NCBI RefSeq assembly: GCF_003334305.1
Contig: NZ_QOWS01000013.1
Length of the DNA: 64,000 nt
Strand: one strand, 5' to 3'
Source of the DNA: Escherichia coli
GTDB taxonomy: Bacteria; Pseudomonadota; Gammaproteobacteria; Enterobacterales; Enterobacteriaceae
The position numbers and the translations under genes are program-made. Every line of letters begins with the position of its first letter. Within the stretch, counting starts at the first letter, position 1. Positions 24,974 through 31,038 of this stretch are shown piece after piece. A model generated the notes under the pieces. That model saw only the letters and a list, made by a program, of their open reading frames with translations. It was not told where the DNA came from and did not search any database.

Positions 24974-27900
24974 TTACTGCGCCTGCACGCGCAACTCTGC
25001 TGCGCTACGACTACGATGACCCAGCAGTGCTTTTACATCACTGGACTTCGGTTTAACCAGCGCAAATTTAGTGGCGAAGGTTGACCAGTTCGCCAGAATC
25101 TCTTCACCGCGCTGAGAGCCAGTATGCTGAACATGCTCGGTGATAAGACCGCGCAGATGCTCTTCATGGATCGCCAGATCGTCAACGCTTAAGACCTCGA
25201 CCAGTTCCGGGTTAACGCGTTTGCGGAAATCACCGCTTTCATCGAGAACGTAAGCGAAGCCGCCGGTCATGCCCGCACCGAAGTTAACGCCGGTTTTACC
25301 CAGAATACAGACAATACCGCCCGTCATATATTCACAGCCGTTGTCGCCAATGCCTTCTACCACGGTGATAGCACCGGAGTTCCGCACGCCGAAACGTTCA
25401 CCCGCGCGGCCTGCGGCATACAGACGACCACCGGTCGCGCCATACAGGCAGGTGTTGCCGATAATACTTGCTTCATGGCTGCGGAAGGCGGAACCAACCG
25501 GAGGACGAATGGCGATTAAGCCGCCCGCCATGCCTTTACCGACATAGTCGTTGGCATCCCCGGTCAGGTACAGTTCCACGCCGCCCGCGTTCCACACACC
25601 GAAACTCTGGCCTGCGGTGCCGTTGAAGTACGCTTTGATAGGATCGGCTGCCAGCCCCTGATCGCCGTGCGTCTGGGCGATATAGCCTGAAAGCGACGCG
25701 CCGACAGAACGGTCGGTGTTGCGAATATCGAACCAGAAGGTTTTGCTCTGGCGTTCATCGACAAACGGTTTCGCCTGTTGCAGCAACTGCGCGTTCAGCA
25801 GGCCGTTATCAAACGGTGGGTTGTTTTCGGTGCAGTAGAGTGCCTTACCTGGATGCGGTTCGGCGGTCTCCAGCAGCTTCGACAGCGCCAGTTTTTGCTG
25901 TTTGGCGGTGAAACCGTCCAGTTCTTTCAGCAGGTCGGTGCGACCAATCAGATCCACCAGACGCGTTACGCCCAGCTGTGCCATCAGCTCGCGGGTTTCA
26001 CGGGCAATAAATTCAAAGTAATTGGTAACCTTGAACGGCAGGCCGTGATAGTGGTTCTTACGCAGTTTGTCATCCTGAGTTGCTACACCCGTTGCGCAGT
26101 TGTTCAGATGGCAAATACGTAGATATTTACAGCCGAGCGCCACCATCGGGCCAGTGCCGAAGCCGAAGCTTTCTGCGCCGAGAATCGCCGCTTTGATGAT
26201 ATCAACACCGGTTTTCAGGCCGCCATCGACCTGCAAACGGATCTTATGACGCAGACCATTGGCAACCAGCGCCTGCTGGGTTTCAACAAGCCCCAGCTCC
26301 CACGGGCAACCTGCGTATTTCACTGACGACAGCGGGCTTGCGCCGGTGCCACCGTCATAGCCTGCGATGGTGATTAAATCGGCATAAGCTTTTGCCACGC
26401 CAGTCGCGATGGTGCCTACGCCCGGTTCGGAAACCAGCTTCACGGAGATCATCGCTTTCGGGTTAACCTGCTTGAGGTCGAAAATGAGCTGCGCTAAGTC
26501 CTCGATAGAGTAGATATCGTGGTGCGGCGGCGGGGAGATCAGCGTCACTCCGGGCACCGAATAGCGCAGTTTGGCGATGTAAGGAGTGACTTTGTCGCCC
26601 GGCAACTGACCGCCTTCGCCCGGCTTCGCGCCCTGGGCGACTTTAATCTGAATGACGTCGGCATTGACCAGATACGCCGGAGTAACGCCGAAGCGACCAG
26701 AAGCCACCTGCTTGATGCGCGACACTTTGTTAGTGCCATAGCGCGCCGGGTCTTCGCCGCCTTCACCGGAGTTCGAGTTACCGCCGATGCTATTCATCGC
26801 TTCCGCCAGCGCCTCGTGGGCTTCCGGGCTTAACGCGCCGATAGACATCGCGGCGGTATCAAAGCGTTTAAACAGTTCGCTTGCCGGTTCAACATCAGCA
26901 ATGTTGACCGCGTTTTCACCCGGCGTAATTGCCAGCAGATCGCGCAGCGTGGTTGCCGGACGCTCATTAACCAGCTTCGCGTATTCCTGATAGTCGCTGT
27001 ACTCGCCGCTTTGTACCGCCTGTTGCAGCGTGCGCACCACGTCCGGGTTGTAAGCGTGGTATTCGCCGCCGTGGACGTATTTCAGCAGGCCGCCCTGGCT
27101 GATGGGCTTACGCGCCAGCCAGGCACGTTTCGACAGGTTCAGCAGATCCTGCTGGAAGTCTTCAAAGCTCGCCCCACCAATGCGGCTGACCGCCCCCTGG
27201 AAGCACAGGCCCACTACATCATCGTGCAGACCGACCGCTTCAAACAGTTTCGAGCAGCGGTAAGAGGCGATGGTGGAGATGCCCATTTTGGACATGATTT
27301 TGTACAAGCCTTTGTTGATGCCGTTACGGTAGTTGAGCATCACGGTACGATAATCTTTGGCAATCGCATGGGTGTCTACCAGGCGGCCCAGCGTTTCATA
27401 GGCAAGGTATGGATAAATAGCCGTCGCGCCGAAGCCCAGCAACACGGCGAAGTGGTGCGGATCGCGGGCGCTGGCGGTTTCGACGATGATGTTGGCATCG
27501 CAACGCAGGCTTTGATCGACCAGACGGGTCTGGATCGCGCCAACCGCCATCGGGGCTGGAACCGGCAGGCGATCTTTAGCGATATTCCGGTCGGAGAGCA
27601 CCAGCAGCACGGTGCCGCTACGTACCATTTTTTCGGCTTTGTCGCACAGCTCTTTGACTGTCGCTTCGAGCGTGGTTTTAGTGACGTCAAAGGTGATATC
27701 CAGCGTATCTGCGCGGTAGTGCTCCTCTTTCATCGTCGTGAGCTGTTTGAAATCGGAGTAGAGCAGAATCGGCGATTTAAAGCTTAAACGGTGCGCCTGG
27801 CCTTCTGCTTCGCAGAAGACGTTCATTTCACGACCAATGCTGGTGGCGAGCGACATAACATGCGCTTCACGCAGCGGGTCGATTGGCGGGTTAGTCACCT

Positions 27901-29434
27901 GGGCAAACTGCTGGCGGAAGTAGTCGTAAATAATGCGCGGCTGACTGGAGAGCACGGCGAATGGGGTGTCGTCGCCCATCGAACCGACCGCTTCCTGACC
28001 GTTTTCGCCCAGTACGCGAATTACGGAGTCCAGCTCTTCCGCGCTGTAGTTAAACTGTTTCTGGTAGCTGGCAAGCGTGTCGTCGTCCAGTTCGCGGCTA
28101 CCCACTTCTTCATCGGGCAGATCTTCAAACGGTACCAGTCGGCGGACGTTTTTCTCCATCCACTCTTTATATGGATGGCGGCTTTTCAGATCGTCATCGG
28201 TTTCTGCCGAGTGCAGAATACGCCCACTGCGGGTGTCGATCACCATCAGTTCGCCTGGCCCGACGCGGCCTTTTTCGACCACTTCGTCAGGCTGATAATC
28301 CCAGATACCGACTTCAGAGGCGCAGGTGATGAGCTTGTCTTTGGTAATGACGTAGCGTGCCGGACGCAGACCGTTACGGTCGAGGTTACAGGCAGCGAAG
28401 CGACCATCGGACATCACGATGCCCGCCGGGCCATCCCACGGCTCCATATGCATGGAGTTAAAGTCAAAGAAGGCACGCAGTTCCGGGTCCATATCCGGGT
28501 TGTTCTGCCAGGCGGGTGGCACTAACAGACGCATGGCGCGGATGATATCCATTCCGCCTGCCAGCAGCAGTTCCAGCATGTTATCCATCGAACTGGAGTC
28601 AGAGCCGGTTTCATTGACGAACGGTGCGGCGTCGTGCAGATCAGGGATAAGCGGCGTCTGGAATTTATAGGTACGCGCACGCGCCCATTGGCGGTTACCG
28701 GTGATGGTGTTGATTTCACCGTTATGCGCCAGGTAGCGGAACGGCTGCGCCAGCGGCCAGCGCGGTACGGTGTTAGTGGAGAAGCGCTGGTGGAACAGGC
28801 AGATGGCCGATTCCAGACGCAGGTCCGCAAGATCCAGATAAAAGCGCGGCAGATCCGCCGGCATACACAGACCTTTATAGATGTTCACCAGATTCGACAG
28901 GCTACAGACGTAGAAGTCTTTGTCGGCTTCGAGACGCTTTTCAATGCGGCGGCGGGCGATAAACAGACGGCGCTCCATATCGCGCGGACGCCAGCCTGCC
29001 GGGGCGTTCACAAAAATTTGCTCAATGCGTGGCAGAGAGGAGAGGGCGATTTCACCCAGCACGCCTTCGTTAGTGGGGACATCACGCCAGCCCACAATCG
29101 ACAAGGTTTCGCGTTGCAGTTCTTCTTCAACGATGCGGCGTGCGGCAGCGGCGAGTTCAGGATCTTTATTCAGGAATAGCATCCCGACGGCGTAGTTTTT
29201 TGCTAAACGCCAGCCGCGCTCCTGCGCAACGATGCGAAAAAAGCGATCCGGTTTTTGTAACAGCAAGCCGCAACCGTCGCCGGTTTTACCATCGGCGAGA
29301 ATCGCGCCACGGTGCTGCATGCGGGCCAGTGCGTGTATTGCAGTACGCACTACCTTGTGGCTAGGTTCGCCTTCTATGTGGGCGATCAGGCCGAAACCAC
29401 AGTTATCCCTCTCAAGGGATTTATCGTACAACAT
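24974..29434 (-). CDS. gltB: Glutamate synthase large subunit
   Basis: ORF-track ORF 24974..29542 trimmed to ATG 29434 ([16 protein letters not shown]...) preceded by GGAGG; 1486 aa; matches GltB. Confidence 0.95.
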
Positions 29435-29612
29435 ATCGTGAACCTCCCCCAGGCTCTGCGGGAACCCCACTTCCGAACCGCTGCGCACGGGCACAGAAAG
29501 AGCGTGGCGACGGGGTTTGCGTGTCATACGCGCGCCTCGCATTCGCCCCCTTGTTGTCCTTTTCGCATCGGTTAATACGGTGAAGAGGGGATCTCAATTA
29601 CTGCATAAATAT

Positions 29613-29631
29613 GATGAGCAGGCTGCTCATC
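29613..29631. repeat. Perfect 19-bp palindrome GATGAGCAG-G-CTGCTCATC in the gltB upstream/leader region
   Basis: 9-bp arms are exact reverse complements; ~180 bp upstream of the gltB ATG at 29434. Confidence 0.6.
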
Positions 29632-30108
29632 CAGAAAGCTTCCAGCGGATTTCCAACTTATCGGGAAAGCTGATACAGGTCAAATGGCAAGCTTATTGGT
29701 ACAGAAATGTGCTTTAGCGCAAAATTCTTTATTAAATGACTGAAATTAAAATAGATTTTATCTTTAAGGCTAAAAGGGAAGTCGTTAGAGAAACAGTCAA
29801 TTCCTGACTGTCATAAAGGCGTGTTAACCCTTATCCTGCCTTGAACTGACGAGAAAACCAGCATTTTATACTGCCTTAATTGGTAATGACGTTTCATGCT
29901 ACTGTTTTTGCCTAAAATCCATAAGGAGATAAAAAAATCTGACACAAGATAAGCAAAAGTGATTTATGTGATTATGCATGAAATTTCGGTAATTTTGATT
30001 GATTATGCAGTTGATAAAAGCAGGCCGGGACGATTGATCCAGGTCATCGCAGAATTGAGCTAAAAATGGCAGGCTTTGGCCTCTTTTCAAGGCGCGGTCT
30101 ATCAGATT

Positions 30109-31038
30109 ATGCAGTTACAGAAATTAGTCAATATGTTTGGTGGTGATCTCACCCGTCGTTATGGGCAAAAGGTGCATAAGCTGACGCTGCACGGCGGTTT
30201 TAGCTGCCCTAACCGTGACGGTACCATCGGGCGTGGTGGCTGCACATTCTGTAATGTGGCCTCGTTTGCCGATGAAGCGCAGCAGCATCGTTCCATTGCC
30301 GAGCAACTGGCGCACCAGGCGAATTTAGTTAACCGCGCTAAACGCTATCTGGCCTACTTTCAGGCGTATACCAGCACCTTTGCGGAAGTTCAGGTGCTGC
30401 GTTCTATGTATCAGCAGGCGGTGAGCCAGGCCAATATTGTCGGTTTGTGTGTTGGTACCCGCCCGGACTGCGTGCCGGATGCGGTGCTGGATCTGCTTTG
30501 CGAATATAAGGACCAGGGTTACGAAGTGTGGCTGGAACTGGGGCTACAAACCGCCCACGACAAAACACTGCATCGCATCAACCGCGGCCATGATTTTGCC
30601 TGTTATCAGCGTACAACCCAGCTGGCACGTCAGCGCGGGCTGAAGGTGTGTTCCCACTTAATTGTCGGCCTGCCTGGCGAAGGGCAGGCTGAATGTTTGC
30701 AAACGCTGGAGCGAGTGGTTGAAACCGGCGTGGACGGCATAAAGCTGCATCCGCTGCATATTGTGAAAGGCAGCATTATGGCGAAAGCCTGGGAAGCGGG
30801 GCGTTTGAACGGTATTGAACTGGAGGATTACACGCTCACTGCCGGAGAAATGATTCGCCATACGCCACCGGAAGTGATCTACCACCGCATTTCCGCCAGC
30901 GCCCGTCGCCCGACGCTGCTTGCTCCGCTGTGGTGCGAAAATCGATGGACGGGAATGGTCGAGCTGGATCGCTATCTGAATGAACATGGCGTACAGGGAT
31001 CGGCGCTGGGACGTCCGTGGCTACCTCCAACGGAGTAG
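30109..31038 (+). CDS. yhcC: Radical SAM protein YhcC
   Basis: ORF-track ORF 30076..31038 (TTG) trimmed to ATG 30109 (MQLQKLVNMFGG...), 309 aa; Cys motif CPNRDGTIGRGGCTFC; matches YhcC. Confidence 0.9.
   Translation: MQLQKLVNMFGGDLTRRYGQKVHKLTLHGGFSCPNRDGTIGRGGCTFCNVASFADEAQQHRSIAEQLAHQANLVNRAKRYLAYFQAYTSTFAEVQVLRSMYQQAVSQANIVGLCVGTRPDCVPDAVLDLLCEYKDQGYEVWLELGLQTAHDKTLHRINRGHDFACYQRTTQLARQRGLKVCSHLIVGLPGEGQAECLQTLERVVETGVDGIKLHPLHIVKGSIMAKAWEAGRLNGIELEDYTLTAGEMIRHTPPEVIYHRISASARRPTLLAPLWCENRWTGMVELDRYLNEHGVQGSALGRPWLPPTE

Follow-up and report, generated by a model that had tools for sequence, protein, structure and literature searches.

GltB, the large subunit of glutamate synthase, is an Fe-S enzyme. 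The solved glutamate synthases, Azospirillum brasilense GltB (1ea0, 2vdc and 6s6s), Synechocystis Fd-GOGAT (1llw) and Bacillus subtilis GltA (7mfm), carry an Ntn-type amidotransferase domain, as does the protein described here. In all of them the catalytic cysteine has to head the mature chain as residue 1, and the propeptide ahead of it is removed, as it would be in GltB of E. coli. The propeptides differ in length: that of E. coli has 11 residues, that of Azospirillum about 36 (from the full-length chain 6s6s) and, by alignment register, that of B. subtilis about 21. Glutamine PRPP amidotransferase (PurF) is a different enzyme; it shares with GltB the class-II amidotransferase fold and a short propeptide that is removed to bare Cys1. 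In Bacillus subtilis PurF, this propeptide consists of 11 residues ahead of the catalytic Cys.

The gltB gene of E. coli K-12 (b3212) has been modelled with 1517 and with 1486 aa. The former is presumably the older K-12 model (the.1 protein version). The locus and the ambiguity between the two starts (29527 and 29434 in our numbering) are the same in K-12 and in the window, the 64,000-nt stretch of E. coli DNA analysed here, without any difference. The ambiguity at gltB is real in practice, yet already known and settled in current curated annotation. In itself it is a textbook case in a well-studied gene, of very little consequence, and the length of 1486 aa agrees with every test made. Possible novelty is confined to the gltB leader.

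Open reading frame and candidate start codons

The gltB gene is located on the minus strand of the window, and the open reading frame list gives it as 24974..29542, with an ATG start and 1522 aa. Three in-frame ATG codons can be considered as starts: 29434, 29527 and 29542, with products of 1486, 1517 and 1522 aa, respectively. The features of this region are as follows.

24974..29434, minus strand: gltB coding sequence, 1486 aa plus stop (open reading frame list, RefSeq placement in three records, start conserved in about 60 genomes)
29432..29434, minus strand: supported initiation codon ATG, aligned in all Enterobacterales and Orbales loci
29399..29431, minus strand: codons 2-11 of the short propeptide, then the catalytic Cys12 codon TGT at 29401-29399 (Pfam and mature-chain alignment)
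29443..29447, minus strand: Shine-Dalgarno GGAGG within the run GGGGGAGG, 8 nt before the ATG, with the best anti-SD duplex of all candidates
29435..29542, minus strand: non-coding stretch of 108 nt sharing the gltB frame, which makes up the 3' half of the 5' leader (no codon-position bias, non-triplet indels, TAG in 15 genera)
29525..29527, minus strand: in-frame ATG of the 1517-aa version (older annotation), in the apical loop GCGU-AUGAC-ACGC of the P3/P4 stem-loop
29540..29542, minus strand: in-frame ATG of the 1522-aa version, within the conserved RNA block GGGCGAAUGCGAGG, found in all three frames among other genera
29594..29596, minus strand: in-frame TGA closing the gltB frame upstream (translation)

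The initial annotation had reported 108 nt, or 36 codons, open upstream of the MLYDK start. The open reading frame list and the translation bear this out (29542 minus 29434 gives 108), and the frame stays open for 159 nt in total upstream of ATG 29434, back to the TGA at 29596-29594. The length of the open frame is not above chance, as at least 108 nt were open in 34% of 5000 dinucleotide-preserving shuffles of the 216-nt leader; 14% of the same 5000 shuffled leaders in addition had an in-frame ATG 93 nt or more upstream. It is very probable that the 108 nt upstream of ATG 29434 belong to a non-coding, untranslated leader of gltBDF, and that translation from this ATG gives a precursor of 1486 residues. 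The open frame with its two in-frame ATGs would then be a chance-level accident of the E. coli and Citrobacter lineage, one that led to the longer gene models of 1517 and 1522 aa, which still circulate.

Annotation of gltB in public genomes

A 1001-nt query round the site found a match in 5417 of 5426 complete E. coli genomes, among which strain A7 is 100% identical, and K-12 is identical to the window over all 361 nt compared round the leader and start (29660-29300). The comparison with curated gltB starts that the initial annotation had proposed agreed with its choice: the RefSeq/PGAP start corresponds to 29434, K-12 b3212 included. This was the case in strain A7, in AREA_497 (the most divergent strain sampled) and in K-12 NC_000913.3, where the gltB record (b3212, 3354725..3359185, NP_417679.2) is 1486 aa long and position 3354725 equals 29434 of the window. 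The 216-nt leader is free of overlapping annotated features, coding sequences included, in all 40 E. coli genomes drawn at even steps from the identity ranking.

That the older model is right, with the true start at ATG 29527 (1517 aa) or ATG 29542 (1522 aa), is extremely unlikely. It follows a longest-ORF logic, and the longer proteins have been deposited often: an exact-sequence look-up of public collections returned all three versions, with 1486 aa in at least 1000 contigs, 1517 aa in at least 1000 and 1522 aa in 155. The current RefSeq and K-12 records stand against it with their start at 29434, as do the homology, which runs from MLYD, and the stops, frameshifts and non-coding substitutions of the upstream region. 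The 1517-aa start was still used in a transcriptome study of 2021 (PMC7815308). The coexistence of the 1486-, 1517- and 1522-aa versions in public databases gives the ambiguity its practical weight, and the older start still alters the reading of data: the 2021 Term-seq end that was filed as ORF-internal falls in the 5' UTR under the current start.

Propeptide and catalytic cysteine

Pfam analysis placed the GATase_2 domain (PF00310, E=3.9e-179) at residues 48-461 of the 1522-aa ORF, corresponding to model positions 1-420. Model position 1 falls on Cys48 of this ORF, which is Cys12 of the 1486-aa product. In the mature chains 1ea0_A, 2vdc_A and 1llw_A residue 1 is a Cys aligned with the same query residue 48. 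The initial annotation had the mature enzyme beginning at the Cys in RDNCGFG, in agreement with the solved homologues, in which the aligned Cys opens the mature chain. The first 11 residues of the 1486-aa precursor are therefore probably removed, exposing the N-terminal Cys of the class-II (Ntn) amidotransferase domain. Within the first 150 residues of the 1522-aa ORF, similarity to solved glutamate synthases was found only from L38 (L2 of MLYDK). The 36-codon extension has no similarity to any of the solved enzymes named above, and searches against solved chains and Pfam gave no resemblance of the extension to known proteins.

Promoter of gltBDF

The Crp site of gltBDF has been described at -76..-55, 21 bp from the -35 hexamer (Paul et al. 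2007, PMC1784095). The sequence of this site, AATTTTGCGCTAAAGCACATTT, maps to 29726-29705 in the window, and the promoter and the leader were placed as follows.

29655..29683, minus strand: gltBDF promoter, with -35 TTGACC at 29683-29678, a 17-bp spacer and -10 TAAGTT at 29660-29655 (sequence matched to the spacing in PMC1784095)
29435..29650, minus strand: 5' untranslated leader of the gltBDF mRNA, about 216 nt, with +1 at about 29650 (±3) placed from PMC1784095 (also nucleotide conservation)

A consensus promoter scan did not pick up PgltB because its -10 hexamer TAAGTT is weak, and published data were used instead to place the transcription start. At about 29650 it lies upstream of both upstream ATGs, so the transcript contains both of them and the transcription start does not decide between the translation starts.

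Ribosome-binding sites

The Shine-Dalgarno sequence of ATG 29434 was placed 6-10 nt upstream by the initial annotation; the GGAGG is actually found at 29447-29443, that is at -13 to -9, with a spacer of 8 nt. The anti-SD duplex at this start (-12.0 kcal/mol, spacer of about 8 nt) is the strongest and best spaced. At 29542 the duplex reaches -10.5 kcal/mol, but the SD-like GGGGG is only 2-3 nt from the codon; at 29527 it amounts to -5.9 kcal/mol, with a weak GAGG 7 nt upstream, and for in-frame GTGs it is negligible. The block with the Shine-Dalgarno sequence, GAGCCTGGGGAGGTTCAC, is nearly invariant in 40 genomes. Translation of the large subunit would begin at ATG 29434 from a strong, well-spaced GGAGG.

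The supplements of TetRP and TRAINSPOTTER hold no entry on gltB initiation, and a full-text search for initiation profiling gave no direct evidence for this gene. Dual initiation in E. coli, mostly at 29434 with a minority at 29527 (or 29542), would lead through a propeptide of 42 or 47 residues to the same mature enzyme. This is unlikely, although the transcript includes both upstream ATGs and minor initiation at 29527 is physically plausible on the folding model: the codon lies in the apical loop with a predicted unpaired probability of about 1.0 and has the GAGG 7 nt upstream. Long propeptides are also tolerated, as in Azospirillum, where residue 28 of 6s6s aligns to E. coli residue 3 and about 36 residues precede the Cys. 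Against it weighs the weakness of the Shine-Dalgarno duplex at 29527 (-5.9 kcal/mol), and since the propeptide is removed, no distinct isoform function is to be expected. Low-level initiation at 29527, if true, would have no obvious consequence for the same reason: the longer propeptide is cut off anyway, and upstream initiation would therefore be without phenotype.

Comparison of the upstream region among related genomes

The comparative scan took one genome per species and yielded 80 loci. They range from those of Kluyvera and Citrobacter, with 97-98% identity in the first 200 residues, to the distant ones of Vibrio and Pseudoalteromonas. Every locus of Enterobacterales and Orbales (about 60 genomes) has an aligned ATG followed by MLY(D/N/K), with the block GAGCCTGGGGAGGTTCAC before it. 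In Vibrionaceae and Aeromonas the gltB start lies only 2 codons earlier, giving M-x-LYDP.

The region upstream of this ATG was compared in the same way. In 15 close genera, with 93-98% protein identity, an in-frame TAG is present 21 nt upstream of the start (-24..-22), because these genera carry T where E. coli has C at 29458. The difference in extension length from E. coli is not a multiple of 3 in 20 of 27 genera. Differences from E. coli at the first, second and third codon positions of the extension number 298, 265 and 287 (32, 28 and 28 variable columns), whereas the first 108 nt of the gltB coding sequence show 1, 12 and 105 (1, 1 and 22 variable columns). Coding-type evolution of the extension, with third-position bias and triplet indels, was thus not found across the 27 genera compared. 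A conserved in-frame upstream start with an open frame was not found either: apart from E. coli, two Citrobacter genomes alone have the ATG at -108 in a frame that is open into gltB.

The two Citrobacter genomes, which keep the frame open from the same ATG, speak against a non-coding extension. Outside them and E. coli the frame, the start and the peptide are unconserved, which weighs against dual initiation. A further point against it comes from E. coli isolate NZ_OZ197100.1, in which a 1-nt deletion lies within the extension and gltB is annotated intact from the MLYDK ATG. This natural frameshift is weak but consistent evidence, as it comes from a single assembly, where an error of sequencing may account for it.

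The counterpart of ATG 29542 shows fair conservation of its own and is found in the block GGGCGAATGCGAGG in E. coli and 19 related loci. It would thus be conceivable that ATG 29542 opens a regulatory upstream ORF, a leader peptide translationally coupled to gltB, which in E. coli is fused in frame by chance. In six of these loci (L004, L013, L016, L018 and L023 among them) the ORF ends at a TGA stopping 1 nt before the gltB ATG. The frame, length, stop position and peptide are all variable, however. The frame of the ORF from the GGGCGAATGCGAGG ATG (0, 1 or 2) differs between genera, the peptides are unrelated beyond MRG, and the end falls at -82, -33, -4, +11 or +46, or the ORF runs into gltB. 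The ATG is missing from many genera (ACACGCG, ACAGATG), and in E. coli its SD-like run is only 2-3 nt away. A conserved upstream ORF was rejected on the variation of frame, stop and peptide among related loci, and the regulatory ORF is very improbable. A better explanation of the block is that it forms one strand of a conserved helix, and the equivalent of ATG 29542 is kept because it lies inside this block.

The choice of ATG 29434 made by the initial annotation is therefore supported by annotation, start conservation, stops and frameshifts, substitutions, the Shine-Dalgarno sequence and homology. It had also cautioned that an upstream start could not be excluded from sequence alone. The caution applies only to initiation at a low level in E. 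coli itself; that an upstream codon serves as a conserved functional start is excluded by the comparison of sequences. We infer that the upstream ATGs are without meaningful ribosome use in E. coli.

Conservation and secondary structure of the leader RNA

The leader is conserved at the nucleotide level in Enterobacteriaceae, Erwiniaceae and Yersiniaceae and is alignable as far as Yersinia and Erwinia. In 5413 of 5417 E. coli genomes the identity of the leader is at least 99%, a level that the surrounding 1 kb attains in only 3096. The nucleotides of the leader would be kept for RNA-level reasons and not as codons, in stem-loops maintained by compensatory substitutions. The following structures come from a consensus fold that was scored on the alignment.

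29613..29631, minus strand: P1 hairpin GAUGAGC-AGCCU-GCUCAUC, then AUAUUUAU (5 of 7 pairs compensatory, 96% of cells paired)
29493..29554, minus strand: P3/P4 stem-loop domain AAGGG-GGCGA ... apical hairpin ... UCGCC ... CUCUU (covariance model R1, covariation)
29440..29456, minus strand: hairpin GAGCCU-GGGG(G)-AGGUUC sequestering the Shine-Dalgarno sequence (RNAalifold consensus)

P3/P4 is a long irregular stem-loop with AAGGG/CUCUU and GGCGA/UCGCC pairs, inner helices and a variable apical hairpin. Both upstream ATGs are located within it, 29542 at a helix junction and 29527 in the apical loop. Covariance model R1 of P3/P4 gave a single match in the 64-kb window and a match at the corresponding position in 35 other loci. 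In a structural alignment fitted to the model, 10 of 19 pairs are compensatory, a count reached by 3 of 500 shuffles. The covariation score from the same fitted alignment is 0.196 as against 0.155 for shuffles (none of 500 reached it) and 0.08-0.12 for slid controls. P1 and P3/P4 thus combine the two features of a structured leader, nucleotide conservation of the 5' UTR and helices with compensatory changes. The Shine-Dalgarno hairpin, 98% paired, is essentially invariant, so covariation neither supports nor refutes it; on a first, gappy alignment of 40 sequences RNAalifold returned this invariant hairpin alone.

In single-sequence folding the E. coli leader was globally no more stable than shuffles (z=0.13). 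Two further RNAalifold pairings are not claimed: a long-range GAUUCCC/GGGAAUC helix (80% paired, one compensatory pair) and a pairing of block B with the start codon, which is invariant. When 28900-30300 was scanned with Rfam 15 (E<=1), nothing came up beyond a chance-level match to an unrelated Clostridioides sRNA, with 16.9 bits against a gathering threshold of 128, and the gltB leader belongs to no RNA family described in Rfam 15. The literature searched describes no leader element, riboswitch or sRNA site for gltB and reports no function for its leader.

RNA 3' end and RyhB complementarity

Two further features of the leader are relevant to its possible role.

29502, minus strand: Term-seq RNA 3' end, converted from K-12 3354657, a few nt past the 3' strand of the GGCGA/UCGCC helix
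29638..29645, minus strand: invariant CUGGAAGC at +6..+13 of the mRNA, a perfect 8-nt complement of RyhB GCUUCCAG (invariant in 41 sequences)

The Term-seq 3' end at K-12 3354657 (+) was reported by Adams et al. 2021 in supplementary files 1 and 3 (PMC7815308). It was classified there as "internal", 25 nt into gltB (PMC7815308), from which it follows that the annotation used the 1517-aa start, 3354632, equal to 29527 of the window. With the current gltB start, the end at 29502 belongs to the 5' UTR and precedes the gene by 68 nt. P1 appears terminator-like in a pattern scan; the sole published 3' end of the leader is this one at 29502, which follows the P3 helix and has a poor U tract.

The extended duplex of the leader with RyhB nt 32-62, to which a further block, within the 5' arm of P1, contributes, has a predicted energy of -26.4 kcal/mol. 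Against the background of the 64-kb window, 8 of 15,994 32-nt windows are as good, placing the site in the top 0.05%. A full-length RNAduplex of the leader against RyhB was meaningless, with giant loops and a result worse than shuffles, and was replaced by the windowed scan. Wang et al. 2015 listed gltB among novel RyhB-repressed genes, as a candidate with a Ribo-seq fold-change entry of 1.06 and P=0.014, and found gltB RNA unchanged (0.23, P=0.52) (PMC4666370). As a lead, the gltB leader can be said to carry a putative RyhB site, judged by its complementarity to the single-stranded core of RyhB and its conservation in relatives.

It is possible, and is put forward tentatively, that the extension forms half of an undescribed structured 5'-leader RNA of gltBDF across Enterobacterales, which would set glutamate synthase output post-transcriptionally and would unite three elements: (i) an invariant RyhB pairing site at the 5' end of the mRNA, overlapping the covarying P1 hairpin; (ii) a covarying stem-loop that may define a stable 3' end or an attenuation point at 29502; (iii) an invariant hairpin that may hide the Shine-Dalgarno sequence in the fashion of a CsrA site. 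The in-frame ATGs would be by-products of the conserved helix sequences. The gltB leader could matter more than the choice of start, as a strongly conserved 5' UTR with covarying helices ahead of an enzyme central to nitrogen assimilation.

Comparison with known control of glutamate synthase

The Term-seq, RyhB and CsrA traces are leads and not demonstrations. Iron-sparing sRNA control of glutamate synthase is represented by RyhB in E. coli, by Ribo-seq, and by IsrR in Staphylococcus aureus. The likeness of the present locus lies in the conserved RyhB complement of the leader; the difference is that the predicted site is located about 200 nt upstream of the start codon and not at the ribosome-binding site.

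Strong repression of GltBD by CsrA, which binds the 5' region of gltB, has been described in Vibrio alginolyticus (PMC12298160). The leader hairpins of Vibrio and Enterobacterales are unrelated in sequence and not alignable. They are alike in arrangement: in Vibrio gltB the Shine-Dalgarno GGA is found in or next to the loop of the hairpin GCAA-AGGGAGA-UUGC just before the AUG, and Enterobacterales have GAGCCU-GGGG-AGGUUC in the same manner.

Conservation and structure of the gltBDF leader

The 5' leader of the gltBDF mRNA contains the following elements, all located on the minus strand of the window:

29435-29650 (-), the entire leader
29613-29631 (-), hairpin P1
29598-29606 (-), Met-Gln-stop mini-ORF
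about 29572-29583 (-), position of a hairpin present in other genera
29493-29554 (-), stem-loop domain P3/P4
29440-29456 (-), hairpin holding the gltB Shine-Dalgarno sequence

The leader is conserved at the nucleotide level from Escherichia through Yersinia and Erwinia, and covariation has been identified in the helices of P1 and P3/P4. At least 99% identity is retained by 5413 of 5417 E. coli genomes in the leader, and by 3096 in the surrounding 1 kb. No Rfam family matches the leader.

Two small elements were also observed. The mini-ORF AUG-CAG-UAA lies right after P1, within the near-invariant block CAUAUUUAUGCAGUAAUUGAG; no Shine-Dalgarno sequence is evident for it, and its counterparts in other genera read MQF*, MQL* or a little longer. 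Between a conserved block upstream of the P3 domain and the domain itself, all other aligned genera (loci L004-L056) possess the hairpin GCAAGU-(loop)-ACUUGU, which E. coli lacks, having TTCACCGTATTA at that position.

Start sites of gltB and yhcC

The extension (29435-29542), an open frame of 108 nt upstream of the gltB start at 29434, is disrupted in the E. coli isolate 23S01245-7 (NZ_OZ197100.1), with a 1-nt deletion and an adjoining substitution at the equivalent of window 29472-29474. Owing to this deletion the upstream ATGs of the isolate are out of frame with gltB, the annotation of which is still intact.

A like discrepancy exists for the neighbouring gene yhcC at window 30076-30109 (+): the mechanical ORF from TTG 30076 encodes 320 residues, and the RefSeq start lies 33 nt downstream, giving a 930-nt CDS.

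Predicted pairing with RyhB

The RyhB core, GCUUCCAG, is perfectly complementary to the invariant CUGGAAGC at the 5' end of the gltB mRNA (minus strand). The predicted duplex between window 29616-29647 (-) and RyhB nt 32-62 has an energy of -26.4 kcal/mol, in the top 0.05% of windows; its formation would unpair P1 along the 5' arm. In a published Ribo-seq list gltB appears among the RyhB-repressed genes, as an unvalidated entry (PMC4666370).

RNA 3' ends and sRNA candidates

Term-seq placed an RNA 3' end at K-12 3354657, equal to window 29502 (-), a few nt past the P3 helix (PMC7815308). It was filed as ORF-internal because that study took the 1517-aa gltB start; by the current start it is a 3' end within the 5' UTR, about 149 nt downstream of +1. 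A second 3' end, at K-12 3354141 (+), lies within the unnamed EcoCyc gene G0-10702 (PMC7815308). This position corresponds to window about 30018 (-), which lies between yhcC and gltB, before the gltB promoter; the RefSeq records compared carry no annotation at this position. 'yhcC-gltB' is cited in another paper as an Hfq-dependent sRNA candidate of E. coli. Deep sequencing yielded ECS0018, a 90-nt cis-antisense sRNA candidate opposite the gltBDF operon, reported with no position and not detected by Northern blot (PMC3175480).

Comparison of the Shine-Dalgarno hairpin with Vibrionaceae

The small hairpin holding the gltB Shine-Dalgarno sequence is invariant, with GGGG(A) in its loop. Vibrionaceae (loci L064, L073 and L076) carry a hairpin at the corresponding position just upstream of the ATG, GCAA-AGGGAGA-UUGC, which is unrelated to it; the gltB 5' region of Vibrio alginolyticus is bound by CsrA (PMC12298160).
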